From Candidatus Mcinerneyibacteriota bacterium (GTDB lineage: Bacteria; Macinerneyibacteriota; Macinerneyibacteria; Macinerneyibacteriales; DSCS01), in assembly GCA_016937175.1 (NCBI GenBank), contig JAFGWL010000056.1:25685-89684 (forward strand): a stretch of DNA of 64,000 nucleotides, given 5' to 3'. Made by a program: the position numbers and the translations under genes. Of this stretch, positions 5,091 through 22,898 are shown piece by piece (position 1 is the stretch's first letter; each line of letters opens with the position of its first letter). Below the pieces are notes generated by a model. That model saw nothing but the letters and a program-made list of their open reading frames with translations, searched no databases and was not told the origin of the DNA.

Positions 5091-5204
5091 GTCAGTCCCA
5101 TAACCTCTTTCTGTTATTCCCATCCTTCTCCCTCTTTTCCGGCCTCTCTTCCAGGTTCACGATGACAGCCAGGATAATCATTATGGCCAGAATAAGTTTT
5201 TCCA
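5091..5204 (-). CDS. Small hydrophobic peptide (37 aa) MEKLILAIMIILAVIVNLEERPEKREKDGNNRKRLWD, type I toxin-like architecture
   Basis: Perfect AAGGAGG SD 6 nt upstream of the ATG. Single TM helix plus charged tail. Below the ORF-track length cutoff. Minus-strand TATAAT at 5256-5261 upstream. Confidence 0.45.
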
Positions 5205-5450
5205 TTACAGGGCCTCCTTAATTGCGACAAACCGTTCCGCGGCTCTCTCATGATTATTATAAAAACAGGCAGAGGGTTAGTTAAGACAGCAAAATGAATT
5301 TGATTTGGTTCCCATTACTATTTTAATCAATTATTATATTTGTAGTTAAATTAGATATACATGTATTCAGGTTCCCAATCAAGGAACTGGTGATATTCTT
5401 TTAGGCCTGTATGTTGTAGGCTTTCAGCCGGCATCCCTAAAGTGAAGCGA

Positions 5451-5477
5451 GAAAAAGGGAGAATATATTATTCTCTC
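5451..5477 (-). terminator. Rho-independent terminator overlapping the stop codon of the giant gene
   Basis: 9-bp stem gggagaata/tattctctc (one G-U pair), loop tat, followed on the minus strand by UUUUUCU. Confidence 0.5.
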
Positions 5478-8400
5478 TCCAATGGAATACGGCCGCTGAT
5501 AAGGAACGAATGATAGATTTTTTCAGCGATCATGGTTCCCAGAAGCTGGAAATAGGAGCTGTCAGAAGCTACCGAATAACGGTCGGAATCGATCCTTAGG
5601 TAGACGGAAGCTGTCGTCCTCTTGTTCAAATCCACTCTCCGTATCAGATCTCCTTTCTCTTCATCACCCGGGAGAGCCGGATCCGTGATCAGACGGCTGC
5701 TTTCTCCCTGCAATCCCAGACAATAAATATCTTCTGATACGTCCAAAACAATAAAAAATGAGCTGGCATGGAAGTAAGTGACCAGCAGGTCAAAGATCTG
5801 CCTGACCATGGCCTCCGGCCCGGTGATGGGTCGGATTTTTTGCGCCAGGTCAAAAACAGCATCGATCTTCTCACTTTCTCTCACAGGATCCCGGAGAGGT
5901 TTCGCTTCCTTCTCTTTTTCCCTGCGCTCAGGGACTCCCCGGATATAAACGGTTCTGTTTCTCCCGCTCTCTTTGGCATAGTAGAGGGCCTCATCTGCTT
6001 TGGCTACGAGCTCTTCCAGAGCCTTTCCGTCATCGGGGTAGAGGGCATAACCTATACTGCATGTCAATTTATAATTCTGGTTCAACACGGAATTTTCAGT
6101 GTTCTTCCGGACCCGGTCAATGATCTTTTCTCTGTCGGCATCTCGGGGTATGATCATGGAGACACAAAACTCTTCTCCTCCATACCGTCCCACAAAGTCA
6201 CTCATGCGGACAGTCCCCTTGACAATACGCCCCATCTCTTTCAGGACCGAGTCCCCTCGTGAATGGCCGTAGGTATCGTTGATATTCTTGAAATGGTCCA
6301 GGTCCAGAATGGCGATGAGAACCTGCTGTTCAGACTTATCGGCATAATCCAGCATATCCTGTGTAAGATTTATCCAATGCTCCCTCTTATAAAGGCCTGT
6401 GAGCCGGTCAAGAAGAGCTGTCCTCTTCAAATAATCATAGTATCCCGCTGCATTGATAAAGTCCCGGAAAGGGCCTAACCCTTCGGTGATTTCTTTGTCA
6501 GGATAGAGGAGAAGACGAGTCGTATCCAGGTAGAGACACCCTCTAAGAGCAAAGTAGTGAAAACTTGATTGCCTGTTTTCCCGTGTTTTGCTTTTTCCCC
6601 GCCCCAGTTTTTCAATATCCAGTACGGGAATGATCAGGATCCCCGTCAGGTTCCGTCCCTGCCTCTTCTCTTCCCGGTGATAGAAGATATCCCTATGGGC
6701 CTTTTCAAAAAGGATCTCATTCAGAAGGTCCCGCCTCATGGGAACCGGAACATGATACCGTCCTTCTTTTTCGATCACAAGTTTCTCTGTCCAGCCCGAA
6801 TAGAGGTCATATTCGAAAAAGCCCCCCCGTGTCATCCCTGTGATATCCATAAGGTCCACGAGGATCGACTTATAGAGCCCTGTCCCCTCATTGACCGGAG
6901 ATAGCTGGTAATCCTCCAGAGCCTTTCTCTTGCTCTCTGCAATCATCTCACGGGCGAGATCACGGTGGGCCTCTCTGAAGAGATCGGGCCGGTCAACCAC
7001 CGGGTCGATGCCATGCTTTTTCAGAAGGCTTGCATGAAAAGCCCATTCTTTGTTTTGTTCCATGAAGGAGGTTCTGTACTGTATGGGGACTGTATTAAGC
7101 CACTCTTTCATTTGGGTAAAGAGGTCCAGGAGGACATCATAGAAGAGAGCTGTCCCCTCTTCATGCTTCTCAACAAGAAGATGAAGTGTATAAAGCATCT
7201 GAGAAGATCTGTAAAAGGGTGCAGCATAAACCCTTTCCAGTGCCTCTTCACTTCCGAGAAAAGCTCTGAGGAGGTCGGAGCGGTTCTTCTCCTCTCTCTC
7301 CTCGATTTCAAAACCTTTTCTCTCAAGAGTATCCAGAAAGCGGACAGCCAGGTCTTTATCTCCCGAAAGCCAGGCCTTCTCCGCTCCATGAAGAAGGAGT
7401 GTGCTATAATGCTTTTTATCTTCTTCTGCAGAGTACCGGCGCAAAATAGCATCCATCTCCTTTTCCATGGCTTTCAGCCCCGCTTCCTCTGCCCGGGCTG
7501 TGAGAGAGACGACCAGGTATTCCACGCATTCTCGAAGAGAGGGACGGTCTTCAAAAAAGGCCCCTGCTTCTTTCAAAGCGGCCCGGGCCCGCTCATGGTC
7601 TCCCAGTTCAAACAGAAGGTCTGCCAGCAGGAAATTCATCTTAGCCCCCTCGCGGACCCCTTTTTCGTCTCCCAAATAATCAAATCCTTTGCTGATGACA
7701 TCATAGGCTTTGTCATAGTAATGGAGTGTCTTGTAGGCTTGGGCTAAATTCATTGTATTGATGGTAGCTGCATGAAAGAAATGGATCCGTTCTGCTGCCC
7801 TGACAGCACGGATCCAGGAAGAAATGGCCTCTTCAATTTCGCCCCGGTCGATGTTGACGATCCCTGTGTTGGTGGAAACGATGGCGATAAGCCTCTGATC
7901 GTCCAGGCGCTGGGCTATCTCCAGGGCTTTTTTGAAATATTCATGGGCACGGTCGACCTCTCTGGCCCTTCGGTAGGCGATGGCTCTTGCGTTATAAGCA
8001 TTGAACTCTGCATCTAAAGAGATGTGTTCCCGATTTTTTTCGACGATTGAAAGCATCTGCTGGGCTGTCTCTTCCATTTTTTTATTGTTCTGATTATCCA
8101 TATAACTTATCATAAGCTCATTAAGGAAGAGCGATTTCCGGTTTTCGTCAAGTCCGTCGATCATCTCCCTGAAGCCGCAGACCATCTCTTCGACTCTATC
8201 ATATTCACTTTTTGTGACATAAAAGACCAGAAGGTTGTAAAAAACAGTCCCCCATTCTTCCGGGTGATCTGCCGGCCCTTTCTCGATAAATCCCATGAGT
8301 TCCTTTATATCCTCTTTATCCCCGTTGGACAGGATGACAAGCCGATAACTCTTGTAAAGGGTCTTTAACAAAGGAGTATCCGCAAAAGCCTCCATCTGGG

Positions 8401-10243
8401 AGAGGACGACATCTTTGCCGATGAAACGCTGAAAATCATGCCGATATAATACCTCATAGAGTTTGAAGAGATTGACTCCCGTCAGGTTTTGAGCAGAATT
8501 ATGGATCTGGGAAAACAGGTTATAGAAAAAGCGGTGATGGACCGACTGTTCCCTGACACCCATCATCAGATAATGGCTCATGGCCTTGTGATAAGCCTCG
8601 GCGCCGAATCCCGTGTTCAGTGCCAGATAGACGAAGGTTTCAAGATAGGAAAGCTCCCGGAACCCGTTCTCTTCAAAATAATCCAGGACAAGACGGGCCA
8701 GAGCGGGGTCGACTTTTTTCTCCCCGGTCTCTATCAGGGAGGAGAGACGGAATACATAGAAGAGTTCATCCCGATAGGCCACATCCTGCTCCTCCAGAAC
8801 CGCCAGGGCTTTTTGCAGAGAGACGGGAGCCTTTTCAACAAAATCCTGAGGGATCTTTCCACCCATAGCCCGTCCCAGAGCCAGAGCCTCTTTCGTATCC
8901 TCCTCTGTTTTCCCCTTAAAAGCTGCGATACTGATTCCGGTGCAAAAACACCCCTGCGTCCGTGGAAAAGATCCCCGGGCTTCGATAAGCTTAAAACATT
9001 CCTTATCAGCTGCCTTACACAGGCTTTTCCTGACCAGGGAAGGCTCTCCCCCGCTCTGGTCCAGAAGCTCCTTAACGGCTTCTTGCATGTCATCAACGAA
9101 ATAATAGTAGTAATGAAGCACACGTGCGGTTTCTTTTTCATCCAGTTTCGCCATGGTCAAAGGGAACATTCCGGGAAGGGGCCTTCGGTTCCAGGCTACG
9201 ACACGGAGGTCTTTCGGTTGAAAACGCCTGGAAAGATAAGTCAAAAACCGCATATCTTCTTCAGACAGCTCCTCTCCTCTGCCCAGGCCTAAAAGGGCCG
9301 GGCCCGAGGCGACTTTATTTTCCAAAAAACGGATTGCTTTGGCACGCATCTCTTCAGGGGTCCTCGCCACAGACTCCCGGCCCTCTTCTTCAGACCGGCC
9401 CAGGTATTTTATGATCCCTTCTGCGAGGGAAGCCTTCTCCTCTTCCAGCCCGAAATACTCATACCCTTTAGCCTGGATCAGGGGGATAAGGCCCTGATAC
9501 CAGAGACGGGCATTTTCTTCAGAAGCATAATCATAAACGGTTGTGAGAGACTCCGTGGTTTCCAATAGGGAGATCTCTCTCTCTGACAGGATCAAGGCTC
9601 CCGGGAAAGGGGTCGAGCAGGCATGGCCCTGAATAAAGTCCCTCTGAAGGCTATCAGAGATCACTTCGCGATGAGGAAAATAGAGCCGGAGGTCTGGTAC
9701 ATCTTCGTCAGAGAGTTTGTATCCTGCTTCATTCATCAAACGGGTAAAGGCCATCAGGTCCGCTCGGCGGCCCATATCGATATCGACATAAAGCGGGCTC
9801 ATATCAAAAAAGACAGGGTTCCTTTTTGTATCCCTCAAGGCATTGCTTTCACGGAGATCCCCGTGGTAAGTCCCGTTAGCATGAAGAAAAGAGATGAGAG
9901 AAAAAAGGCTGTTGATCAACATCTCTTTGTTCTCCGGGTTCATTCGAAAAAGCCCCGGCATCTTATCAGCGATATAAAAAGAGCGGGAACTGTCTGTGTA
10001 ACGGCCGTCTATACTCGCCAGGGTGTGAAAAGAGCGGATAGGCCGCAGAAGTGGATGCCTGTAAAGAGAGGTAACCATATATTCTTTTGTCAGAAGGTCC
10101 TTTTGGAATTTTTCTTCAGAAACTGTTATTTTGAGGATAAGCTCTCTTTTTGGGAAAAAAAGGTCGCCTGCTTCATAGACGATAAAATTATTGTTTTTAT
10201 TAAGAAGTTTTTTAATCGTAAAGCGTCCGTTGACCAGTTTCAT
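5468..10243 (-). CDS. Giant multidomain signalling protein (1591 aa): degenerate protein-kinase-like N-terminus, possibly degenerate STAND/TPR core, GAF-like region, GGDEF diguanylate cyclase (GGEEF) and a C-terminal GAF-like extension
   Basis: Kinase-like motifs HGDLRESNAL (catalytic loop) and FFDMSP (in place of DFG). TPR-like helical repeats. LDLDHFKNINDTYGHSRGD...RYGGEEF is a GGDEF domain. GGAG SD. Confidence 0.9.
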   Translation of the reverse strand: MKLVNGRFTIKKLLNKNNNFIVYEAGDLFFPKRELILKITVSEEKFQKDLLTKEYMVTSLYRHPLLRPIRSFHTLASIDGRYTDSSRSFYIADKMPGLFRMNPENKEMLINSLFSLISFLHANGTYHGDLRESNALRDTKRNPVFFDMSPLYVDIDMGRRADLMAFTRLMNEAGYKLSDEDVPDLRLYFPHREVISDSLQRDFIQGHACSTPFPGALILSEREISLLETTESLTTVYDYASEENARLWYQGLIPLIQAKGYEYFGLEEEKASLAEGIIKYLGRSEEEGRESVARTPEEMRAKAIRFLENKVASGPALLGLGRGEELSEEDMRFLTYLSRRFQPKDLRVVAWNRRPLPGMFPLTMAKLDEKETARVLHYYYYFVDDMQEAVKELLDQSGGEPSLVRKSLCKAADKECFKLIEARGSFPRTQGCFCTGISIAAFKGKTEEDTKEALALGRAMGGKIPQDFVEKAPVSLQKALAVLEEQDVAYRDELFYVFRLSSLIETGEKKVDPALARLVLDYFEENGFRELSYLETFVYLALNTGFGAEAYHKAMSHYLMMGVREQSVHHRFFYNLFSQIHNSAQNLTGVNLFKLYEVLYRHDFQRFIGKDVVLSQMEAFADTPLLKTLYKSYRLVILSNGDKEDIKELMGFIEKGPADHPEEWGTVFYNLLVFYVTKSEYDRVEEMVCGFREMIDGLDENRKSLFLNELMISYMDNQNNKKMEETAQQMLSIVEKNREHISLDAEFNAYNARAIAYRRAREVDRAHEYFKKALEIAQRLDDQRLIAIVSTNTGIVNIDRGEIEEAISSWIRAVRAAERIHFFHAATINTMNLAQAYKTLHYYDKAYDVISKGFDYLGDEKGVREGAKMNFLLADLLFELGDHERARAALKEAGAFFEDRPSLRECVEYLVVSLTARAEEAGLKAMEKEMDAILRRYSAEEDKKHYSTLLLHGAEKAWLSGDKDLAVRFLDTLERKGFEIEEREEKNRSDLLRAFLGSEEALERVYAAPFYRSSQMLYTLHLLVEKHEEGTALFYDVLLDLFTQMKEWLNTVPIQYRTSFMEQNKEWAFHASLLKKHGIDPVVDRPDLFREAHRDLAREMIAESKRKALEDYQLSPVNEGTGLYKSILVDLMDITGMTRGGFFEYDLYSGWTEKLVIEKEGRYHVPVPMRRDLLNEILFEKAHRDIFYHREEKRQGRNLTGILIIPVLDIEKLGRGKSKTRENRQSSFHYFALRGCLYLDTTRLLLYPDKEITEGLGPFRDFINAAGYYDYLKRTALLDRLTGLYKREHWINLTQDMLDYADKSEQQVLIAILDLDHFKNINDTYGHSRGDSVLKEMGRIVKGTVRMSDFVGRYGGEEFCVSMIIPRDADREKIIDRVRKNTENSVLNQNYKLTCSIGYALYPDDGKALEELVAKADEALYYAKESGRNRTVYIRGVPERREKEKEAKPLRDPVRESEKIDAVFDLAQKIRPITGPEAMVRQIFDLLVTYFHASSFFIVLDVSEDIYCLGLQGESSRLITDPALPGDEEKGDLIRRVDLNKRTTASVYLRIDSDRYSVASDSSYFQLLGTMIAEKIYHSFLISGRIPLERE

Positions 10244-10261
10244 CTCATCTCCTGCCTCTTT

Positions 10262-11245
10262 TTATTGCTCCGTTTTTTTGGACTCGTCCGGCCGTCCCAT
10301 GGGCTCCATGAGACGCCAGGCGTTTCGATAAGCGATTTTTTCACACTCCCCTATGGTAAATCCCGCTTTTCTAAAGGCCTCAAACAACCTGGGTATCCCT
10401 GAATAATCCTCCAATTCCAGAGGACAGAATATTCCGTCGAAATCACTTCCCAAAGCGCAGGCCTCTATTCCCCCGCATCTTTTTAGATGTCTCATATGAG
10501 CGACAATTCCTTCAATGGTGCCGGTTTCTCCCGTGCCGAGAAAAGCAGAAGAAAAATTGACCCCGATGACTCCCCCACGTCCGGCTACATCACGGATCAT
10601 CTCATCTGTGAGATTCCTTGGATGCGGGGTTATGGCCCTGCAGCAGGAGTGGCTGGCCAGGAAAGGCCCTTCCATGATCGCTGCCACGTCTTTGAACCCC
10701 CTGTCTGACAGGTGAGAGACATCCACGAGGATCCCCTTTTGTTCCATGGCTTTAACAGCATCTTTTCCCAAGTCCGTAAGCCCCTTTTCCGTGTGGACCC
10801 AATCTTTATTGGGATACCCGAGCGAATTGGGGAAATTCCAGGTAAGTGTGATCAGCCGCACGCCTTTGCTGAAGAGAAGGTCGATGTCTTCCGGGGAAGT
10901 TATGATCCCTCCCTCTTCCAGCGTCAGTATGGCACTGATCTTATTTGAAGCTTTGTTTTTTTCAACATCCTCCAGAACGCGTGCCGATTCCAGTCCCGGA
11001 AGGGCTTCAATTTCTTCATAAAAACGGCTGATCATGGAAAAGGCATAATCCCTGTATTCTTCGATGGCCTTCGCCGGATCGCCCATATAGATGAAAGCAG
11101 CAAAGAACTGAGCTAAAGCTCCCCCTTTTCTCAGCTTCTCCATATCAATATGATACCCGTTTTTTTTGAAATCTCCTCCGTAAGTAAAGGTGCGCCACAG
11201 AGTATCGCAATGGAGGTCGATGACCGGAAAGGGAGCCTGCATCAC
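10262..11245 (-). CDS. Membrane dipeptidase, peptidase family M19 (renal-dipeptidase-like)
   Basis: PVIDLHCDTL and GSDFDG motifs of M19. Start MQAPFPV lies 2 nt after the upstream stop. The track N-extension overlaps the upstream gene. Confidence 0.8.
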   Translation of the reverse strand: MMQAPFPVIDLHCDTLWRTFTYGGDFKKNGYHIDMEKLRKGGALAQFFAAFIYMGDPAKAIEEYRDYAFSMISRFYEEIEALPGLESARVLEDVEKNKASNKISAILTLEEGGIITSPEDIDLLFSKGVRLITLTWNFPNSLGYPNKDWVHTEKGLTDLGKDAVKAMEQKGILVDVSHLSDRGFKDVAAIMEGPFLASHSCCRAITPHPRNLTDEMIRDVAGRGGVIGVNFSSAFLGTGETGTIEGIVAHMRHLKRCGGIEACALGSDFDGIFCPLELEDYSGIPRLFEAFRKAGFTIGECEKIAYRNAWRLMEPMGRPDESKKTEQ

Positions 11246-11246
11246 T

Positions 11247-12125
11247 CTAGAGTCCGTTCCACCCTGCCAGCCGAGACCAGAGCCACCAGGCAGCATATGC
11301 CTTGAGATTTCCGTTCAGCGCCTGGGTATGGGCCGGATAACAGAGGTACCAATCTGTCCCCGAAGTATGAGCATCCTGCCATTGGATGGCCCAATTGGCA
11401 TCGCGGATCTGATCCCCGTCTGAATCGTAATCACAATTATCATTGGCCAGCAAGGACAGATATTCCTCCCCGTCGGGATCATAACTCTCGATGTCGGCAA
11501 AATCGTAGAGGATCTTCTCATACTGCCTGCAGTAGGAGCGGATCTGTTCATTCCTCTGATGCAGGTTCCCGGCCAGGCCCGTTCCGTCCAGATGTCCGGT
11601 CATATAGACAAAAGCAACCCCGGGATAATCGATCTCCAGCTGATTCATAAGATTCAGATAGGTCAGGATATCCTCTTCCGAGGCATCAGAGACCTGTCCG
11701 CACCAGGACCATATCACCACATTACATTCAGGATGAGTGTCCAGATAGTCCCTGGTCGATTGGGCCCAGGAGACCCGGTCAGGGTTCCCCAGGTCGCTTG
11801 CTCCGCTGAAAGGGGTGTCCTGAAGATCCAAAGCTCCTCCGCTCCCGCCTTCATTCCAGGTATAGAGCCCCTCCCCCCCCATAAAGGCATCCAGGGCGTT
11901 CATCCCGGTAATGATCTGGCTTCCATGGGAAGTATGGCCGTAAGCGATATGGAGGTTCGTTTTAGCCGCCTCTATGGCCGATTCAGGGATCGCGTTGATG
12001 TCAGTACAAAGATGATCCACAATAAACCCGTCGCTTAAGACAGGGTCCAGGATCTTCGACTCCGTTTTGGCACATCCCCACAGAAAAATCAAAAGAATGA
12101 TAAGGAAAAAGAGCATTTTTCTCAT
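11247..12125 (-). CDS. Uncharacterised lipoprotein (possible hydrolase). Conserved blocks GHTSHG, VIWSWCGQ and YMTGHLDG
   Basis: Signal peptide with lipobox LWGC. GGAGGAGG SD. 292 aa. Confidence 0.65.
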   Translation of the reverse strand: MRKMLFFLIILLIFLWGCAKTESKILDPVLSDGFIVDHLCTDINAIPESAIEAAKTNLHIAYGHTSHGSQIITGMNALDAFMGGEGLYTWNEGGSGGALDLQDTPFSGASDLGNPDRVSWAQSTRDYLDTHPECNVVIWSWCGQVSDASEEDILTYLNLMNQLEIDYPGVAFVYMTGHLDGTGLAGNLHQRNEQIRSYCRQYEKILYDFADIESYDPDGEEYLSLLANDNCDYDSDGDQIRDANWAIQWQDAHTSGTDWYLCYPAHTQALNGNLKAYAAWWLWSRLAGWNGL

Positions 12126-12141
12126 ATGACCTCCTCCGTCT

Positions 12142-15100
12142 TCAAGTATCCTCTTCTTTTTGAATGGTATGAAAGGATGCTAAAAAGACCTTTTCACTGA
12201 TAATATTCCCCAGCATCGTAAAAAAACGTTCATCCTGCTGAAAAGAATAGCGGTCCGATCCCATCTCCAGATAGACCGAAACACTGTAATGTTCATGGAT
12301 GGAATAGGTATTCAGCCTGGCTCCGCCTAACCCCCTGTCAGACTCCATCTCTCTTTTGCCCACCCCCTGGGCAGAGGCTTTTTTTTCGTAATAAATAAAG
12401 TGACTGTTCCCGCCCATGAGAATTCCCAGACGTGTAGCTTGGAAAAGGGCTACGAGGATATCATAAATATCCGAAACGACCTCTTCAACAGGCATAAAGG
12501 GGTCGATCTTCTCTTCAATGCCCAGCAAGGCATCCAGCTTCTCTTTCTCCCGGACAGGGTCATCGATAGCCTTTTTATTGTTTTTCTTTTCTCCCGCTGC
12601 ACTCGCCGGCATGGTCTCATAGGCGATGGTCACATTTCGTCCGCTCGATTTTGCATAATAGAGAGCTTCATCGGCCTGTCCCAGCAGAGAGTCTAAAATC
12701 TCTGCATCCCGGGGATAGAGGGCATACCCTATGCTGACGGTCAGGTTGAACTTTTTGTTCAGGGCCGAACTCTGTACATTCGCCCGGATCCGGTCCGTGA
12801 TACCGGAATAGGAAGCTTTCGGGGGAACCATCATGGCCAGGACGATCTCCTCGCCTCCATAGCGTCCGACGATATCTGAGGCTCTGACTGTCTCTTTGAT
12901 AATAGCACTCACTTCTTTTAAAACAGCATCTCCCCTGGCATGGCCGTATCTGTCGTTAATATTCTTAAAATGGTCGATATCAAGGATGGCTATGATCACC
13001 TGCTGGTCATTGTTCAAAGCATATTCCATGAGTTTTTTGGTCAGATTGATCCAGTGTTCCCTTTTATAAAGGCCCGTAAGCTTGTCCATGAGAGCCGTCT
13101 GTTTCAGGTAATCGTAATAGCCTGCGGCATTGATGTAATCTCTCAGGGGGCCCAGCCCCTCTGTGACCTCCGCGTCAGGCACCAGCAGCATCCTGTCGCT
13201 GTCCAGATAGATACATCCCCTCAAGGCAAAGTAGTGGTAGCTTGACTGGCGCTTATTGTCTCCCCTGTATTTATTGTGTCCCAGTTTTTCTATGTCAAGC
13301 ACCGGGATCACCATGACAGCACTGGCAGAAGAACCTTTTCTGGCCGGTTCACGGCTGAAATAGACATCCCGATGGGATGATTCAAAAAGGACCTCGTTGA
13401 TCGCCTCTTTATAGACAGGAAGAGGTGGATGATATCCGGTCCCCAGGTCCAGAACCACTTTATGCTGCCACCCTTCATACATGTCATACTCATAATAGGC
13501 TGCCCGGGTCATGCCGGTGATCCGGATCAGGTCTTTCAGAATGGACCTGTAGAGATTCTCACCTTCACTCATGGGAGACAACCTGTAGTTTTTCAATGCC
13601 CGTTTTTTCTCTTCCCGGATAAAACGCCGTGCTGTCTGCTCATATTCCTGACGAAATGAGTCCAGATGAAATTTTTCGGACTCATACCCCTGTTCCCGGA
13701 GGAGCTTACTGTGGAAGCGCCATTCAGGATTCTTCTTTTTAAAGGAATCCCTGTATTGATAAGGGATATGCGCCAGCCAGCGGCTCATGATAGAAAGAAG
13801 CTGGGCACAATATTCCAGATGCAGTGCATTCTTCGTCTTCTCTTTTCGGATAAGAGCGTTAAGGACAAACATGGACCTGGAATACCCTGTAAACTCCCCC
13901 ATCCCCTCTTCATCAAACTCCCTCTTCTCTCCGCTGAGAAAGAGGATGACATCCATCATCTTCCTGTCCCCCGGCTCCAGGGTCTCCAGGGAGCCGGAGT
14001 CGATTTTTTTTACATAGTCAGCTGCATCCTGATAGTGGCCTGCACATAGGAGCTGAAGGGCAGCGGTCAGAAGGACGATACTGTAATAGGCCTGGTCTTC
14101 AGCGGAAGAAAAACGTGAAAAGAGGCCTTCGATAAACTCGTCCATGGACTTCTTCCCTTCTGCCTGGAAGAGAAGAGCGATTCTGACGTCGAAATACTCA
14201 TAACTTACTTTTAAAGCGCTCCGTTCTTCATAAAAGGGGGCCGCTTCCTTCAAATGGGCTTTAGCCTGTTGATAATCCCCCAGTTCCATAAGCATATCCG
14301 CATAGAGAAGATGAAGCTTTGAATTTTCCCGGAGTGTAGGAGCTTCAGCCAGGTAAAGCTCTATTTTTTTAAAGGTCGACAGGGCTTGCTCATACTGATG
14401 GAGAAGTTTGTAGACTAAAGATAGGTTGATCGAGTTTGTAACCATTGAAAAATAGATCTTTGCCTGCTCAGCAGCTTTCACTGCGCTTGTCCATGAGGCC
14501 GTACAAGCTTCATAATCTCCTGAATAGTAGTGTATGACACCGATATTAGTTGCCACAATAGCTTCGTAACGATAGTTCTCCAGGATCCGTGCGATCTCAA
14601 GTGCTTTGTTATAGTGGACCAAAGCCTCCGGAAGACGTCCCTGTCTGCGGAGAACGATGGCCAGATTGTTATGGCTGCTGAAGTGGGCATCCAGCCCTGT
14701 TTTCTCTCCTTTTTTTCCAACGATCTCAATCATGGACCGGGCTGTCTCCTGCATCTTTTCAAGATCCATCTTATCCATATAACAGGAAAACATCTCATTC
14801 ATGACCATGACCCGGTTTTCATCGTTCAACGATTCGATGGGCTTTTTATATTTCTCCATGAGCTGTTCCATCTCTTCATAGCGGCCGAGGAATTTCAACT
14901 TCAGCAGGACATGCCGGAGAACGAGGGCCCAGGTATCCTTCTCCTTCCGGTCATAAGCATCCAGAAAAGGGTACATCGCCCTTACATCATCCAGAGTCGC
15001 TTTATCATCCAGAGTCAGCTTAAAAGCCTTTGTGACCTGCTTCTCTCGTTCCGTCCGCCCCTCTTTCTCCAATTTTTCCAACAGGAGGGAATTGTCATAG

Positions 15101-16881
15101 ACATGATTGTGATCCAGCTTCAATAAGTTCAGATAGAGGTCAAAGGAGTTTCCCCCTTTCATCTCCCCGATATTTTTTTCAAAGGCCCGGAAGAGGCGAA
15201 AAAAGAGGACACGGTTCAGAGAACGCTCCCTTTCGCTCAACCGGTTGTAAAAAGAGAGGATCTTTTCGTAAGCTTCTTCCCCCTGCCCGGTGTTTAGCGA
15301 ATAAAAGACATAGCTTTCAAGATAAGCCTTCTCCTGAAATGCAAGTCTTTCCAGCTCATCATACAAAGGACGTTGATCCGTCGTCGTAAATTTTTGTCGG
15401 ACAAGATCGCCGGGGATCCTGTTCAACCGCAGGATGAAGAAAAGTTTGTCCCGGTAAAAAGCTTTCTCTTCCATGAGGTAGATAAGGGCCTTTTTTTCTT
15501 CAGAAGAGAAGAAATCGAAAAAAGAGGAAGGTATCTTTCCTCCCATGGATCGGGCCAGAACCACCACATCCTCTACGGCTTTTCGCTCAGAGCCGGGAAT
15601 CTCCTTTAAGGAAATGGAAAAATCGAAACTCTCTTTCCCCTTATCCAGCGAGACAGTCCCGTTTTTGAATATAAGAGACTCTCCTGCAGCCATTTGACGG
15701 ATAAGCCTAAGAAGGAGGGATGGCTCTCCTTCCGACTGACGCCACAGGGTCTTCGCGGCCTCTTCATCTTCGTTCAGATAAGGAATATAATACCGGAGGA
15801 CGCGACAGGATTCTTCTTCTGTCAGAAGCGGGCAGGAGAGGTTTTCAAACTCTTCAGCAGGCTCGCGCTGCCAGATGAAAAAAGAGATACGATTGTTTTC
15901 AAAATGGTTCGCAATCTTTCTGAGCAGGCTAAGGTCATCACGGCTCATGGATTCTGCCGCTCCCAGCCCAATGGCCACAGGCCCATACCCGGCTGCATCT
16001 TCAAGAAAGCTCAGGAGCCCCTCTTCTCCGTCTGCGCCATTGACTGCCGCTGTAAGCCTCTGAGAAAGGGGTTCCGGGCCTTCTGCCCTGTAAAGCTCGA
16101 TCCCCTCAGCCTGGATAAGAGACAAGACCGCCTCATACCAGATACGGGCATTATCAGCACCACGATAATCATAGATCACCGTCACCGGCTGTATAAAAGT
16201 GAGCCCGTCCGGGGTTCTTGACTGTATAAGTCGTTCAGCTGGGAAGGGAGTGGCCCTGATATGCTCCAGTGCCACAGCTTTAACGTAATCATCCGAGATA
16301 AGAGAACGGAAACCGGGCAGCGAGAAGAGCTCCGTTGCATCCTCTTCCCTGAAGGGAAACCCGAGAGACCTCAGTAACTCAGCAACGGCTTTCATATCAT
16401 TTTTCTGTCCCAGGGCATTATTCACATAGAGAGGGCTCATATCAAAAAAAAGAGGAAGCCCCTGGCCGTCAGCCAGGATATTGCTTTCCCTGAGATCTCC
16501 GTGATAAGCTTCATTTCTGTGTAGAAACCCTAAAAAGACATAAAGGGCACTGATTAGGGTTCCGGCCTTCTGCTTGTCGGCCTGGAAAAGCGAGGGATAT
16601 TTGTCGGCTATATAAAAGCAACGGGTTGTATCAGTGAATCGACCGTCGATGGTCCGCAAAGGGTGAAAGGAATCCAGGGGCCGAAGCAGCGGATGTCGGT
16701 TCAACAGGCCGGCAAGATATTCCTTTCTCAGAAGATCAGTCTGAAAACGTTCTTCCGAAGCCGTGACCTTCAATATCTTCTCTTCGCCCGGAAAGAGGCG
16801 GTCGACCGCTTCATAGACGATGAAATTGCTGTTCTCATTCAAAAGGGTTTTGATTTCAAAGCGGCCGTTGAATAGTTTCAT
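12142..16881 (-). CDS. Giant multidomain signalling protein, paralog of 5468..10243 (1579 aa): kinase-like N-terminus, TPR/STAND-like core, GAF-like region, GGDEF domain with variant motif GGEEI
   Basis: N-terminus MKLFNGRFEIKTLLNENSNFIVYEA is near-identical to its paralog. HGDLRESNIL and FFDMSP motifs. RYGGEEIVLAMM in the GGDEF domain. Confidence 0.9.
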   Translation of the reverse strand: MKLFNGRFEIKTLLNENSNFIVYEAVDRLFPGEEKILKVTASEERFQTDLLRKEYLAGLLNRHPLLRPLDSFHPLRTIDGRFTDTTRCFYIADKYPSLFQADKQKAGTLISALYVFLGFLHRNEAYHGDLRESNILADGQGLPLFFDMSPLYVNNALGQKNDMKAVAELLRSLGFPFREEDATELFSLPGFRSLISDDYVKAVALEHIRATPFPAERLIQSRTPDGLTFIQPVTVIYDYRGADNARIWYEAVLSLIQAEGIELYRAEGPEPLSQRLTAAVNGADGEEGLLSFLEDAAGYGPVAIGLGAAESMSRDDLSLLRKIANHFENNRISFFIWQREPAEEFENLSCPLLTEEESCRVLRYYIPYLNEDEEAAKTLWRQSEGEPSLLLRLIRQMAAGESLIFKNGTVSLDKGKESFDFSISLKEIPGSERKAVEDVVVLARSMGGKIPSSFFDFFSSEEKKALIYLMEEKAFYRDKLFFILRLNRIPGDLVRQKFTTTDQRPLYDELERLAFQEKAYLESYVFYSLNTGQGEEAYEKILSFYNRLSERERSLNRVLFFRLFRAFEKNIGEMKGGNSFDLYLNLLKLDHNHVYDNSLLLEKLEKEGRTEREKQVTKAFKLTLDDKATLDDVRAMYPFLDAYDRKEKDTWALVLRHVLLKLKFLGRYEEMEQLMEKYKKPIESLNDENRVMVMNEMFSCYMDKMDLEKMQETARSMIEIVGKKGEKTGLDAHFSSHNNLAIVLRRQGRLPEALVHYNKALEIARILENYRYEAIVATNIGVIHYYSGDYEACTASWTSAVKAAEQAKIYFSMVTNSINLSLVYKLLHQYEQALSTFKKIELYLAEAPTLRENSKLHLLYADMLMELGDYQQAKAHLKEAAPFYEERSALKVSYEYFDVRIALLFQAEGKKSMDEFIEGLFSRFSSAEDQAYYSIVLLTAALQLLCAGHYQDAADYVKKIDSGSLETLEPGDRKMMDVILFLSGEKREFDEEGMGEFTGYSRSMFVLNALIRKEKTKNALHLEYCAQLLSIMSRWLAHIPYQYRDSFKKKNPEWRFHSKLLREQGYESEKFHLDSFRQEYEQTARRFIREEKKRALKNYRLSPMSEGENLYRSILKDLIRITGMTRAAYYEYDMYEGWQHKVVLDLGTGYHPPLPVYKEAINEVLFESSHRDVYFSREPARKGSSASAVMVIPVLDIEKLGHNKYRGDNKRQSSYHYFALRGCIYLDSDRMLLVPDAEVTEGLGPLRDYINAAGYYDYLKQTALMDKLTGLYKREHWINLTKKLMEYALNNDQQVIIAILDIDHFKNINDRYGHARGDAVLKEVSAIIKETVRASDIVGRYGGEEIVLAMMVPPKASYSGITDRIRANVQSSALNKKFNLTVSIGYALYPRDAEILDSLLGQADEALYYAKSSGRNVTIAYETMPASAAGEKKNNKKAIDDPVREKEKLDALLGIEEKIDPFMPVEEVVSDIYDILVALFQATRLGILMGGNSHFIYYEKKASAQGVGKREMESDRGLGGARLNTYSIHEHYSVSVYLEMGSDRYSFQQDERFFTMLGNIISEKVFLASFHTIQKEEDT

Positions 16882-16956: not shown

Positions 16957-16985
16957 TTGCCCATCACCATTCTCCCTGATATAAT
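16957..16985 (+). promoter_or_regulatory. Sigma70 promoter TTGCCC-17nt-TGaTATAAT (extended -10) for the zinc-ribbon gene. The predicted TSS coincides with the ATG, so the mRNA would be leaderless
   Basis: TTGCCC at 16957-16962; TATAAT at 16980-16985 with TG at 16977-16978; ATG at 16993; no SD. Confidence 0.5.
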
Positions 16986-16992
16986 TTCATTA

Positions 16993-17760
16993 ATGAAACG
17001 GGAATCATCTTTGTATCACTGTCCGGAATGCAGTGAATTCGTAACAATGTCCCAATCCTACTGTCCTGCTTGCGGGACACGCCTTTCCCCTTCCCGGCTC
17101 AGGCCAGCCGCAGAAGAGGATAAGGTGACCCGGAAACACAGACGCTCTTTTGTCCCCCTCATCCTCGTTTTCATCCTCCTTATCACCGCTGTCATTTTCC
17201 TCAGCCCTCTCAACCGGGCTCTTCGCCCTCTTCTTCCCGGAATGCCGGTTTTTCAGGAGCCCCCCGGGACCTTCGAATGGGACGGAGAATACCTTACGTC
17301 ACATGCGGGGAATTTTTATATCCGTCTTCCTTCTCCCCCGTCTTTTGAGATCTCACAGATCAAAGCTGAAGGGGCTTCTTTCGACGAATATATTTTTACA
17401 GCACAGGATGAAGAAAGCCAGTGTCGTATTCTTTTTACTCTTCTTGATGACAGGACTTGCGGGACTCTTGATTTCAGCCAGCCCCTGAAAGCTTTGGAAA
17501 CCCTCAGCAGGATGAACATCATCGAGGGGAACCCCGTATCGGCATCTCCCCTGCTCTTTTATGATTTCTGGCCGGGAATCGAATTTCAGGTAGAGGTCAT
17601 TCCCCGGCAGGGGTCTGCATTACTGGGAGTGGGACGAGCTTTTTTAAAAGAAAAGACCCTCTATATCATGGAAGTTGTCAGGCCCTCAGCCCCGGGGCTT
17701 CCCCAAAAGAGCTCTTCCATCCCCTGGGTCGACTCCTTCGGGTTGATCGATATCAACTGA
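16993..17760 (+). CDS. Zinc-ribbon (CPEC...CPAC) membrane-anchored protein with extracytoplasmic domain, 255 aa
   Basis: Two CxxC pairs at the N-terminus, then a TM helix (LILVFILLITAVIFL). The track start at 16957 is a TTG inside the -35 element and is rejected. Confidence 0.65.
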   Translation: MKRESSLYHCPECSEFVTMSQSYCPACGTRLSPSRLRPAAEEDKVTRKHRRSFVPLILVFILLITAVIFLSPLNRALRPLLPGMPVFQEPPGTFEWDGEYLTSHAGNFYIRLPSPPSFEISQIKAEGASFDEYIFTAQDEESQCRILFTLLDDRTCGTLDFSQPLKALETLSRMNIIEGNPVSASPLLFYDFWPGIEFQVEVIPRQGSALLGVGRAFLKEKTLYIMEVVRPSAPGLPQKSSSIPWVDSFGLIDIN

Positions 17761-19908: not shown

Positions 19909-20330
19909 ATATCCTCCCTGAACATCCCCGTGATAAAGAGGTCTGACACCGTGGACACTGTGCTGAGGACTTCTATCCCAAAGTGATGGTAGAGCTCCTC
20001 CCATTTGGGATCGAAGACATGGGCAATGACCCTGGGGACTTCATAATATTTCCTCGCCATCTGGGCCACCATAAGATTGGCATTGTCATCATCACTCGTA
20101 CAAAGGAGATAATCGGCATCCTTTAATTTGGCTTGCTTCAGGATATTTGGATCAACTCCATCACCCAGGATCGTGAAGCCTCCGAAATTCTCATCCAATC
20201 TGGAGAAGGACTTCTTGTCTGTATCAATGACAGTGACACTGTGTCCGAGTCGGCTCAATTTATTAGCCAGATAGGATCCGATCTTCCCCGAACCTATGAT
20301 GACAATATACTTGATGTTTTTCATTATCAT
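19905..20330 (-). CDS. trkA: TrkA-N domain protein (NAD-binding RCK N-domain only)
   Basis: IVIIGSGKIGSYLANKL Rossmann motif. 141 aa. The ATG overlaps the stop of the response regulator (ATGA). Confidence 0.8.
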   Translation of the reverse strand: MIMKNIKYIVIIGSGKIGSYLANKLSRLGHSVTVIDTDKKSFSRLDENFGGFTILGDGVDPNILKQAKLKDADYLLCTSDDDNANLMVAQMARKYYEVPRVIAHVFDPKWEELYHHFGIEVLSTVSTVSDLFITGMFREDM

Positions 20331-20998
20331 CCACCAAGACTCACGGGTTTATCAGGATGCATACTCGTCGCCCGGTCAATATTCTCGATAGCGGGTTTAA
20401 AGGCCGGGTCTATGGCTGTTGCTGCCCTGTAATACTTCAAAGCGTTATTTCTCTCTCCAGTCTTCTCATAGTAGACCCCCATCAGATTGTAGCCTTCCGG
20501 CTGATTGGGATCAAGGGCTATAGCCCTCTTGATCAGCCCCAAAGCTGTGGATGTCTTCTTCCCTTTGATCAAACCGATGATCTTTTCAATAAGGTCGCCA
20601 TAACTCTCTTTTCCAGGAACACTCTCATCCCTCTCAAACTCGATATTCATTTCGACAATCTGTCGGATCTCTTTAGGAGTAAATGGTTTTTGGATAAAAT
20701 CCATCGCCCCTGCTTTCATAGCTTCCACGGCCGAATCAACTGTTCCGTGAGCTGTAATGATGATGACACAGGGTTTGATTTCAGAATTTTTCATAATTTC
20801 CTTAAGTGTATCGATACCGCTCATCCCCGGCATCTTCAGATCCAGAAGAATGATATCAAACCTGCTGGCTTTGTGCAATCTGACAGCTTCTTCACCGTTG
20901 ACAGCTGTTTCAATGAGACAATCCGGTTTCTCCAGCGCCATTTTTATTGTCGTTCTGATATTTTTTTCATCGTCTACGATAAGTATTTTTTTCATCAA
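20327..20998 (-). CDS. Response regulator: REC receiver domain fused to C-terminal TPR repeats, with no DNA-binding domain
   Basis: ILIVDDEKNIR...LLDLKMPGMSG receiver motifs. C-terminal TPR-like helices (YNLMGVYYEKTGERNNALKYYRAATAIDP). Confidence 0.85.
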   Translation of the reverse strand: MMKKILIVDDEKNIRTTIKMALEKPDCLIETAVNGEEAVRLHKASRFDIILLDLKMPGMSGIDTLKEIMKNSEIKPCVIIITAHGTVDSAVEAMKAGAMDFIQKPFTPKEIRQIVEMNIEFERDESVPGKESYGDLIEKIIGLIKGKKTSTALGLIKRAIALDPNQPEGYNLMGVYYEKTGERNNALKYYRAATAIDPAFKPAIENIDRATSMHPDKPVSLGG

Positions 20999-22854
20999 CC
21001 CTCCTCTTCTATCGTTCTCATAGGTAATGTGAAAGTAAAAGCCGCTCCATTGCCCTTCTCTGATTCGACCCAGATGGTTCCCTTATGAGCATGGATGATC
21101 TCCCTTGATATCGAAAGTCCCAATCCCGATGCCCCCTGCTTCTCCTTATCACCCGTTTGGAAAAAGCGGTCGAAGACACGGGAAAGATCCTCCGGGGAGA
21201 TTCCAGGACCGAAATCACGGACAGTGACATAGAGATTGTCCCGGATTATCCGGGTTTTAACTGCGACCTCTCCTTTTTCTTCGGTATACCGTAGGGCATT
21301 TCCTATAAGATTGACTAAGACCCAGACGATTTTTTCAGTATCATGGTAAAAAGGCGGACTCTCTTTACTGTCCACTTCTACTTTGATCCCCTTCTCTCTG
21401 ACCTGGTTTTCCAGGACACTTAATGCTTTATCGAGCGTCTCTGAAAAAGGACAAAGCTCAAAATTCAATGGAAGCTGGCCTGATTCCATTTTCGAAAGGT
21501 TCAAAAGATCACTGACCAGGTTGCTTAACCGGCTGATCTCTTCACCGATCATATCCACAAGTTCCGTCACCTCTTTGCCCTTAATTTTTTCTTTCAGCAG
21601 ATCGACACTCATCTGCATACCGGTCAATGGAGTCTTCAATTCATGGGATGCAGCCATAACAAAATCGCTTTTCATCTTATCCAGAATCCTAAACTTTGTG
21701 ATATCTGTAATCAGAACGACAGCCCCGAAGACCGATTCTTTTTTCATAAAGAGGGGGGTGATTGTATATTGATAATACTTTATACCTTTTTCTCCCTGGA
21801 TCTCGATCAGGTTTTCCCCTTCTTTTTTTTCAAGCCGGCCTGTTCCCATGATGCTTTTGATATTTTTAAACAGAGTCTCCTCTTTTATGACTTCAAGAAA
21901 ATGGCGGTCCAGAGATTCAGACTGGCTCATATGAAAGATATCGGCGGCTTTTGTGTTGATGTTGGTTATCTTCATTTCTTCATTGACGACAATGACGCCG
22001 TCATCGATCTTATTGATGATAGCTTCATTTTTCTTGGTCTCCGTAAGGATCTGCTTGATATTGAGATTCTGATAAAACTGAAGCTTCTGGCTCATCCTGT
22101 TGAATTCCGCAGCCAATTGCCCGAATTCGTCTTTTGATTTTGTTCCAAGTTTGATATTATAATTTCCCCGGCTGATTTCATCAATGGCTGGAAGAATCTC
22201 TTGCATCGGACGCGTGAGGAGGTGAGAAAAGAGAAGGCTCAGAAGAAAACCGGCCAAAAGAGTTCCGCTGCCGACAATAATCAAGGAGAGACGGCTTTTT
22301 GCTGCGATCTCTCTTGTCCGTTCACTGGTTAAAAACATGGTATGCTGGTTCAGGTTTCTTAAAGCGATACAGGCCTTCCTGACCTGATGAAATTTTACCA
22401 TCAGGTCGTTCAGGTAAAACTTTCTTCTTCCTTCATTCCCAGTACGCTGGTATTCCTTGACCATGAACTGATAGAACGAATTAAGGTAAGAATTGTAATG
22501 TTTTTCCAAATCCTCAATCAAAGCCCCCTCTCCCTGGATGGTCTCGTTCTCGGCAGCAGCCTTTAGCCATGAAAGAAAATCCTGCTCGTTCTTTTTAAAA
22601 TCTTCCAGAAGAGATGCACTGTAGTCTGAGAAGAGGATCAGCGTTATGCTGTCTTGCCGTTCAATCGAATCCACCATATTTTCAGCAGCGATAATACTGT
22701 TATAATTCTCCTTGAGGATCTCCTGACTTGCATCTCCCAGCTCGCTGAGTTTTGAGAGCGCCCATAGAAAGATCACTGCAATCAATACAAGAAAGACAGC
22801 ATAAGCGATGAGGATTCGCCACTTTAAAACCGGCTGATACTTTTTGTTATCCAT
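20995..22854 (-). CDS. Sensor histidine kinase (2 TM, HAMP, PAS, HisKA, HATPase)
   Basis: H-box HELKTPLTGM and G-box GLGLSISREI. 4-nt overlap with the downstream response regulator. Confidence 0.9.
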   Translation of the reverse strand: MDNKKYQPVLKWRILIAYAVFLVLIAVIFLWALSKLSELGDASQEILKENYNSIIAAENMVDSIERQDSITLILFSDYSASLLEDFKKNEQDFLSWLKAAAENETIQGEGALIEDLEKHYNSYLNSFYQFMVKEYQRTGNEGRRKFYLNDLMVKFHQVRKACIALRNLNQHTMFLTSERTREIAAKSRLSLIIVGSGTLLAGFLLSLLFSHLLTRPMQEILPAIDEISRGNYNIKLGTKSKDEFGQLAAEFNRMSQKLQFYQNLNIKQILTETKKNEAIINKIDDGVIVVNEEMKITNINTKAADIFHMSQSESLDRHFLEVIKEETLFKNIKSIMGTGRLEKKEGENLIEIQGEKGIKYYQYTITPLFMKKESVFGAVVLITDITKFRILDKMKSDFVMAASHELKTPLTGMQMSVDLLKEKIKGKEVTELVDMIGEEISRLSNLVSDLLNLSKMESGQLPLNFELCPFSETLDKALSVLENQVREKGIKVEVDSKESPPFYHDTEKIVWVLVNLIGNALRYTEEKGEVAVKTRIIRDNLYVTVRDFGPGISPEDLSRVFDRFFQTGDKEKQGASGLGLSISREIIHAHKGTIWVESEKGNGAAFTFTLPMRTIEEEG

Positions 22855-22898
22855 ATTGGGCTATTTTAGTCTGCCGGAGGTGTCTTGTCAATTTTCTT

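Follow-up and report, generated by a model that had tools for sequence, protein, structure and literature searches.

Two giant genes in a window of DNA from Candidatus Mcinerneyibacteriota bacterium (the window being the whole 64,000-nt stretch analyzed, GCA_016937175.1, JAFGWL010000056.1 positions 25,685-89,684) appear to encode ancient paralogous sensor diguanylate cyclases of the cytoplasm, built on the plan of STAND proteins; we put the probability of this reading, with the mechanism described below, at roughly 0.6. The two proteins, giant A (an open reading frame, ORF, of 1579 aa) and giant B (1591 aa), share one domain order, namely a kinase domain, an AAA+/STAND-like nucleotide-binding oligomerization domain (NOD) with a winged helix, a helical arm with tetratricopeptide repeats (TPRs), a GAF domain, a GGDEF domain and a C-terminal GAF-like domain, and are 40% identical end to end. 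A preliminary description of this DNA had noted two adjacent minus-strand ORFs of these lengths, which the ORF list bears out, and the motifs that it picked out (HGDLRESN, GEPSL(V/L) and GLGxxE) are all found in the translations. Its domain map was largely right as well: the order kinase-like, STAND-like, TPR, GAF and GGDEF stands, while the places assigned to GEPSL and GLGxxE do not. A database protein that matches giant B at 100% identity is labelled merely 'diguanylate cyclase [Candidatus Mcinerneyibacteriota bacterium]'. Below, P-numbers denote relatives of the giants and L-numbers related loci. The two genes and the domains of giant B are located as follows.

12142..16881, minus strand: giant A, 1579 aa (ORF and translation), with kinase-like domain, dead NOD, winged helix, arm/TPR, GAF, GGDEF and C-terminal GAF-like domain
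5468..10243, minus strand: giant B, 1591 aa (ORF and translation), with the same domain order as giant A
9554..10243, minus strand: B residues 1-230, minimal Hanks-type kinase domain (K38, E54, HGD 127-129, N134, D147, D162), without a GxGxxG loop and without an activation loop
8729..9553, minus strand: B residues 231-505, NOD-like alpha/beta domain, helical lid (GEP 399-401) and winged helix, without Walker A or B
6989..8728, minus strand: B residues 506-1085, helical arm and TPR sensor (Pfam TPR and TPR_MalT at ~720-995)
6428..6889, minus strand: B residues 1119-1272, GAF-like domain whose last helix enters the GGDEF domain
5939..6427, minus strand: B residues 1273-1435, GGDEF diguanylate cyclase domain (GGEEF active-site motif, RMSD (RxxD) I-site)
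5489..5887, minus strand: B residues 1453-1585, C-terminal GAF-like alpha/beta domain (model confidence 77-92)

On the STAND-type plan the giants would read effector, NOD (nucleotide-binding domain, NBD, then lid and winged helix), arm, TPR sensor and effector. In the mechanism that we propose, the dead NOD, the arm and the TPRs would together form a ligand-responsive oligomerization scaffold that brings two GGDEF domains together; synthesis of cyclic di-GMP (c-di-GMP) needs two GGDEF domains brought together. The TPRs would sense ligand and the GAF domains would add small-molecule input, with the inhibitory site (I-site) giving product feedback inhibition. The kinase domain would bind ATP and probably autophosphorylate or phosphorylate a partner, and would thereby supply the nucleotide-dependent input that is no longer available from the NOD.

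The N-terminal domain is a Hanks-type kinase whose homology to known kinases is statistically significant. An AlphaFold2 model of B residues 1-525 on a 12-sequence alignment (predicted local distance difference test score, pLDDT, 86; predicted template modeling score, pTM, 0.87) has a bilobal kinase fold at the N-terminus, in keeping with the kinase-like domain of the preliminary description, which had proposed structure prediction as a check. Foldseek returned 1,789 PDB matches at E<=1e-3, the best 50 listed being all protein kinases, and in a profile search against PDB sequences the best 60 of 115 matches (E<=10) are protein kinases throughout, with a best E of 0.0014; RIO1 and OspG are among the weak matches of the domain. 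Six close homologs reach, at best, E 0.028 for Pkinase and E 1.4e-4 for RIO1 in Pfam, with the window copies below threshold, and the family fragment P0186 exceeds the Pkinase threshold (63.2 bits, cutoff 31.7); the Pfam kinase matches span model positions 1-142 only. Searched against 5.8e9 sequences, a profile of seven distant members matches genuine Pkinase proteins with E values between 1e-11 and 1e-6, and hhalign of the family kinase against two such kinases gave probabilities of 95% and 98%.

Conservation was assessed in an alignment of 13 sequences, the distant members of which are ~20% identical to B. Invariant in 13/13 are K38 of beta3, E54 of alphaC, H127-G128-D129, N134 and D162 of alphaF, and D147, which follows beta8 in a DMS or DIS motif, is kept in 12/13, P0017 having N at this DFG-type Asp. 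The glycine-rich GxGxxG loop is not present, its place being taken by LLNKNNNFIVYEA in the window copies (an LLNxNxNF pattern) and by GESDNS in the distant members. Neither an activation segment (DFG...APE) nor a full C-lobe was found in the alignment or by hhalign, which pairs DMSPLY with the SPE/APE region and skips DFG; D147 and D162 are only 15 residues apart, leaving no room for an activation segment. Judging from these residues, the domain is probably a minimal non-RD kinase that retains ATP-Mg binding and phosphotransfer. The term pseudokinase, under which it had first been described, is unsupported, given that sequences so distant all retain the catalytic K, E, HGD, N and D162, and all but one retain D147.

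The alternative that bears most directly on this domain is that it is nonetheless a genuine pseudokinase that serves as a scaffold or docking module independent of nucleotides, with signaling running solely from the TPR and GAF domains to GGDEF. The LLNxNxNF or GESDNS sequence in place of GxGxxG, the lack of an activation loop and APE motif, the subthreshold Pfam Pkinase scores of the window copies and the Asp-to-Asn replacement in P0017 would all fit such a module. However, it is difficult to see why the catalytic residues would persist at ~20% identity unless the domain is catalytic or, at the least, binds Mg-ATP, and we regard a pseudokinase as possible but rather unlikely. Minimal kinases that have no activation loop, such as RIO, Bud32 and OspG, are active, which further counts against it.

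The domain that follows is recognizable by its fold. In the model, residues 231-505 form a five-stranded alpha/beta domain (b1 233-237, a1 242-257, b2 262-265, b3 316-322, b4 346-352, b5 360-362), followed after b5 by a three-helix lid, the last helix of which begins with GEP (399-401), and by a winged helix (445-498). An NBD, helical lid and winged helix succeeded by an arm and a repeat sensor is the layout of the published STAND scheme (PMC4381067). The STAND-like core for which a structure prediction had been suggested is thus, as modeled, real at fold level, with weak support from sequence: AAA_16 is matched in 2/13 members (best E 0.017) and nSTAND_NTPase4 in 1/13 (E 0.0095), neither significantly, and a profile search of PDB sequences with the NOD region returned nothing relevant.

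Within this core, the G of the GxP motif is invariant and E-P is kept in 10/13 members. Of the nucleotide-binding motifs little is left. The position of Walker A (GxxxxGK[ST]) reads YDYASEENARLW, with GK[ST] in 0/13 members, and at the Walker B position the window clade has LLGLGR or IGLGA, with acidic residues surviving in some distant members only (IIDD in P0007, IIPD in P0010 and P0017). Two placements of the preliminary description are corrected by these assignments: GEPSL lies not within the TPR core but upstream of it, in the helical lid of the NOD-like domain, and GLGxxE is not at the Walker A position but on strand b3, which is that of Walker B, where it aligns with IIDD of P0007. Since no member has a Walker A motif, the NOD cannot be a canonical NTPase. 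We conclude that it kept its fold and GxP while losing Walker A family-wide and Walker B in the window clade, and that it is the dead part of the protein. Identity between A and B is 25-32% in the NOD, winged helix and arms, as against 41-61% in the best-conserved parts (kinase, TPR, the first GAF domain and GGDEF).

Pfam and NCBIfam scans of A and B, also proposed in the preliminary description, called the TPR and GGDEF domains in both giants, as it had predicted; kinase, AAA_16/NB-ARC and GAF domains were called in neither, and Pfam misses three of the five domain types. TPR repeats occupy residues ~735-900 in both proteins; in A, Pfam places TPR at residues 733-889 and GGDEF at 1263-1416. 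Residues 506-1085 of B are helical and match TPR_2, TPR_12 and, below threshold, TPR_MalT (33.8 bits, cutoff 45), and NCBIfam gives weak matches to the TPR regions of MalT, AfsR and NsdA. A helical stretch with such matches fits the position of arm plus sensor in the STAND scheme.

A second model, of B residues 1085-1591, shows a long helix, an alpha/beta domain (1119-1272), the GGDEF domain and a further alpha/beta domain (1453-1585). With a pLDDT of 75 and a pTM of 0.40, the individual domains are sound and the packing between them is not. The C-terminal domain (pLDDT 77-92) has the order helix-strand-strand...strand-strand-helix, and at least one GAF fold flanks GGDEF. By sequence, no Pfam GAF family is matched at E<=1 in A or B; in profile searches of PDB, the first GAF domain gave the GAF domain of BphP at a non-significant E of 0.23 and the C-terminal GAF-like domain gave no match.

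The GGDEF domains score above curated thresholds in both giants (Pfam E 1e-37 and 7e-39). B carries the motifs RYGGEEF, DLDHFKNIND and KESGRN, and the active site of A reads RYGGEEI. GGEE is invariant, and DxDHFKxxND and KxxGRN are intact in all members; every protein of the A clade has GGEEI, as do P0003 and P0004, and the motif reads GGEE[F/Y] in B and all distant members. Five residues upstream of GGDEF lies an RxxD I-site (RMSD in B, RASD in A), of which R and D are present in 13/13. On these motifs, the GGDEF domains look competent. One or both could instead be non-catalytic receptors that bind c-di-GMP through the I-site, making the giants c-di-GMP-regulated kinases or scaffolds, as the GGEEI of the A clade, P0003 and P0004 and the invariance of RxxD might suggest. 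We judge this improbable: the substrate and metal motifs (DxDHFKxxND, GGEE and KxxGRN) are intact throughout the family, B and all distant members have the canonical GGEE[F/Y], and the domains score highly against models of active diguanylate cyclases.

The two giants are old paralogs. A and B each have their own orthologs in at least three genomes, and a scan of GTDB genomes found the same pair in two others (L001 and L002). A-type proteins are 58-73% identical to one another, as are B-type proteins, and A and B are 37-40% identical in every comparison. The orthologs of each thus being closer than A is to B, the duplication is older than the split between these lineages, and the ortholog comparisons give no hint of gene conversion. 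The preliminary description had called the N-terminal 60 residues near-identical and proposed a recent duplication or concerted evolution. These residues are 67% identical between A and B, less than residues 1261-1320 at the start of GGDEF (75%), and their above-average identity points to constraint on a functional domain rather than recency; recent duplication and gene conversion are both rejected on the ortholog identities.

The family is real, fixed in length, rare and effectively unannotated. An exhaustive HMMER search of 1.84 billion representative proteins, with a profile of residues 1-1100 of both paralogs, yielded ~11 full-length relatives (clusters at 50% identity), all of 1575-1625 aa; all other strong matches cover the TPR segment alone. 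The distant part of the family comprises seven clusters (P0006, P0007, P0009, P0010, P0011, P0017 and P0018). A word-indexed homology search with the N-terminal 718 aa gave no match although its collection contains identical and 72%-identical full-length proteins, so that this negative is a pre-filter miss and does not show absence. Pfam scans of 13 long TPR-only matches revealed no kinase/AAA_16/GGDEF relatives and instead generic CHAT-TPR, NB-ARC-TPR and HisKA-TPR proteins (P0203, from the kinase profile search, was also scanned). A frameshift or fusion artefact was rejected, full-length ORFs recurring at 1575-1625 aa in independent assemblies. The relatives all come from metagenome-assembled genomes (MAGs) or metagenomes, and the few with a name are listed as 'diguanylate cyclase', 'GGDEF domain-containing protein' or 'hypothetical protein'. 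Three of them, P0165, P0171 and P0172 (HDS02425.1, HDS03134.1 and HDS03359.1), fall into P0004-like and distant P0007-like clusters and share the HDS prefix and the label 'Firmicutes bacterium', which suggests one MAG encoding at least four family members. A single-protein metagenome scan for the genomic context of the distant (~20% identical) members found nothing.

Between the two giants lie a lipoprotein with an LWGC lipobox and an M19 dipeptidase, as had been described, and a divergent gene precedes A.

16957..17760, plus strand: zinc-ribbon and single-transmembrane (TM) protein, 267 aa, divergently transcribed (N-terminal CPEC...CPAC)
11247..12125, minus strand: predicted lipoprotein, 292 aa, family not assigned (signal peptide and LWGC lipobox)
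10262..11242, minus strand: M19 family dipeptidase without a signal peptide (Pfam Peptidase_M19 E 9.7e-81)

The four minus-strand genes are probably one operon, to judge from their packing and synteny. The tight packing reported earlier is borne out by gaps of 16 nt between A and the lipoprotein gene and 18 nt between M19 and B; a third, of 4 nt, separates the lipoprotein from M19, which probably starts at the in-frame ATG 11242, 4 nt past the lipoprotein TAG. The start given by the ORF finder, ATG 11296, was judged unlikely because it overlaps the lipoprotein gene. GGAGG-like ribosome-binding sites precede each of the 16- and 18-nt gaps, and no terminator-like hairpin was found in any of the three gaps. 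A survey of the neighborhood, suggested in the preliminary description, shows the four-gene order conserved in several lineages: the order zinc-ribbon/TM (divergent), A, lipoprotein, M19 and B is found again, at 59-96% identity and with flanking genes included, in loci of several metagenomes, and A-lipoprotein-M19-B is kept in L001-L003 and L005-L011. In L003, an M19 gene is called in the corresponding place, and the lipoprotein keeps its position in all related loci. The 267-aa zinc-ribbon/TM gene is syntenic with A in every related locus that reaches far enough upstream, which is an association only. Since A and B are retained as a constant pair within a probable operon, they probably act together, possibly as hetero-oligomers. 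The lipoprotein and the cytoplasmic dipeptidase may tie their pathway to the cell envelope or to peptide metabolism; the link of the giants to these two proteins is one of association.

There is little chance, in our estimate, that the four genes are merely adjacent and independently regulated, with a lipoprotein and a dipeptidase functionally unrelated to the giants. Promoter-like hexamers do occur inside the cluster on the minus strand (e.g., 12125-12097 and 10215-10187), but the promoter scan gave only ~2x the matches of shuffled sequence, which is not evidence of function. The lack of lipoprotein and M19 neighbors around P0003 also favors independence. Against it stand the 16/4/18-nt gaps, the ribosome-binding sites, the lack of terminator-like sites and a gene order that is the same in all A/B-clade loci down to ~59% identity.

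The lipoprotein is more conserved between genomes (73-88%) than the adjacent giants (59-73%). It has no family match in Pfam, NCBIfam or PDB, and all four orthologs give the same sub-threshold MHB hemophore match (24.6 bits, cutoff 27.4). Its invariant motifs GHTSHGSQ, WSWCGQVS, MTGHLDGTG and CYPAHTQ suggest that it is an enzyme or has a metal or ligand site.

Other arrangements of family members were also seen. A third tandem paralog, P0004 (1588 aa, ~37% identical to A and B), lies directly after B in three loci (L003 10001-14767, L008 14848-19644 and L011 14848-16772), which are probably one lineage. In the window, the slot after B holds a 270-aa ORF and not a third giant; the 400-nt gap downstream of B contains a 37-codon ORF (5092-5205, minus strand) with a strong AAGGAGG ribosome-binding site and a hydrophobic N-terminus followed by a charged tail (MEKLILAIMIILAVIVNLEERPEKREKDGNNRKRLWD). 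P0003 (L004 8742-14743, GCA_964548195.1), a more distant relative present in single copy, is directly downstream of a SpoIIE/PP2C-type phosphatase gene and [FeFe]-hydrogenase-like genes; a phosphatase beside this kinase-bearing protein hints at a phosphorylation cycle.

The genes flanking the cluster encode TrkH/TrkA, a response regulator with TPR, two sensor histidine kinases, an M55 peptidase and a FAD-binding protein. Just upstream of TrkAH, at 20327-25379 (minus strand), are the response regulator-TPR fusion and the two sensor histidine kinases (HAMP-PAS and dCache-PAS hybrids), and the whole 5-25 kb stretch is dense in signaling genes. STAND-like NODs with TPR sensors and nucleotide cyclases recur in defense systems, which speaks for an anti-phage or conflict system made of a STAND/Avs-like sensor, a cyclic-nucleotide effector and the lipoprotein and peptidase as downstream effectors. 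PADLOC models, run on six proteins, gave a generic TPR match (2.6e-5) and a weak MkoA match (7e-4) over the kinase catalytic loop only, with no match for the lipoprotein, M19 or the flanking ORFs and no specific family for any of the six. We reject the defense role raised by the preliminary description as very unlikely indeed: the PADLOC result and a synteny that is stable at 59-96% identity, flanking genes included, argue against the variability of a defense island, the NOD has no P-loop, the neighbors are housekeeping genes (TrkAH, two-component systems, peptidases) with no mobile-element genes nearby, and a GGDEF domain with an I-site is typical of housekeeping c-di-GMP signaling.

The architecture is not unprecedented and belongs to a documented class, of which the giants are a rare and very divergent form: combinations of kinase, TPR and GGDEF (PMC1262709), of kinase and STAND (PMC4381067) and of kinase, GAF and HisKA or cyclase (PMC2176072) came before. 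A 1826-aa 'Kinase + 6 TPR + GGDEF' protein of C. thermocellum (gi|23020879) was listed in 2005 by Krupa & Srinivasan (PMC1262709). Known from genome surveys only, it resembles A and B in being giant and cytoplasmic, with an N-terminal Ser/Thr kinase, central TPRs and a C-terminal GGDEF domain; it differs, in a comparison by domain description only, in that no NOD, GAF or tandem paralogs are reported. Its kinase was detectable by the methods of 2005 and is therefore canonical, and, as our exhaustive search gave only ~11 full-length relatives, the protein is unlikely to be a close member of the family.

Kinase-STAND proteins such as PknK of M. tuberculosis have been recognized in the MalT subfamily (PMC4381067), and 'Kinase + MalT-like' proteins have been listed (PMC1262709). 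MalT and PknK share with the giants the order effector, NOD, arm and repeat sensor and a GxP-type motif in the lid, and PknK also has an N-terminal kinase effector. However, they have a working P-loop, with ADP/ATP exchange driving multimerization, whereas the giants have lost Walker A family-wide and end in GAF-GGDEF-GAF outputs in place of the DNA-binding domain of this comparison. In cyanobacteria, proteins joining a kinase and GAF to HisKA or a cyclase are abundant (PMC2176072). HstK/cbSTKIII (Ser/Thr kinase, GAF and HisKA) and Tery_2857 (kinase, GAF and class III cyclase) resemble the giants in having an N-terminal Hanks kinase and a GAF domain directly before a dimerizing output enzyme; their kinases are canonical, their output is a histidine kinase or class III cyclase rather than GGDEF, and no relationship to the giants was detected by sequence.

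Sensor cyclases with an I-site (PleD 1w25, the Geobacter GAF-GGDEF protein 6d9m, DgcR and the phytochrome-GGDEF protein 5llw) are ~300-700 aa long with one sensor module, to which the giants add a kinase, a dead NOD, TPRs and a second, C-terminal GAF-like domain. Finally, the 901-aa metagenomic protein P0188 has a short kinase that shares the HGD...D-I-S subtype with the giants (hhalign 98%, 33% identity) and, by its Pfam match, ends after the catalytic loop; a Pfam AAA+ ORC/Cdc6-like NTPase follows it, and Cdc6 is also the best match of the giants' NOD. The NTPase regions do not align in hhalign and no TPR, GAF or GGDEF is reported for P0188, which may be a sister architecture with its NTPase still recognizable.

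Several points weigh against reading A and B as STAND-type sensor cyclases. The missing glycine-rich loop could abolish ATP binding, and the active site of A is the GGEEI variant. Neither Pfam nor NCBIfam calls the kinase, NOD or GAF domains in the giants; the sole non-kinase fold match seen for the NOD is one Cdc6 match among the best 60, and by hhalign the NOD region shows no similarity to the ORC-CDC6-like domain of P0188. The operon is read from spacing and synteny only, and P0003, single-copy and without lipoprotein and M19 neighbors, shows that the pairing is not universal. As the preliminary description had supposed in recognizing no characterized module, the literature likewise gave no experimental characterization of any family member.

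Beyond the STAND-type sensor cyclase reading itself, we speculate, with low confidence, that the NOD is a nucleotide-free relic whose role as ATP-dependent switch was taken over by the minimal kinase. ATP binding or autophosphorylation, together with TPR and GAF ligands, would then license A/B hetero-oligomerization and c-di-GMP synthesis; the signal, perhaps a peptide, might be produced or reported by the lipoprotein and dipeptidase. If true, this would be a new gating of a STAND-type platform, with Ser/Thr phosphorylation hard-wired to c-di-GMP output.

The value of these findings is limited by the precedents for the architecture class and by functions that are predicted from sequence and models. 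What distinguishes the giants is their extreme divergence, a minimal kinase with intact catalytic residues and the family-wide loss of the NOD P-loop, as well as the extra C-terminal GAF-like domain and the conserved two-paralog operon. In public records, ~1,000 residues of each giant are unannotated behind the name 'diguanylate cyclase'; domain boundaries are now given for them, and K38, D129, D147, RxxD and GGEEF are candidate residues for testing. The family is restricted to an uncultured candidate phylum, where it is among the few signaling features with a conserved genomic signature. If the mechanism that we propose is true, a STAND-type scaffold would have outlived its own ATPase with the help of a borrowed kinase domain, and Ser/Thr-kinase signaling would be physically coupled to c-di-GMP synthesis in one polypeptide.

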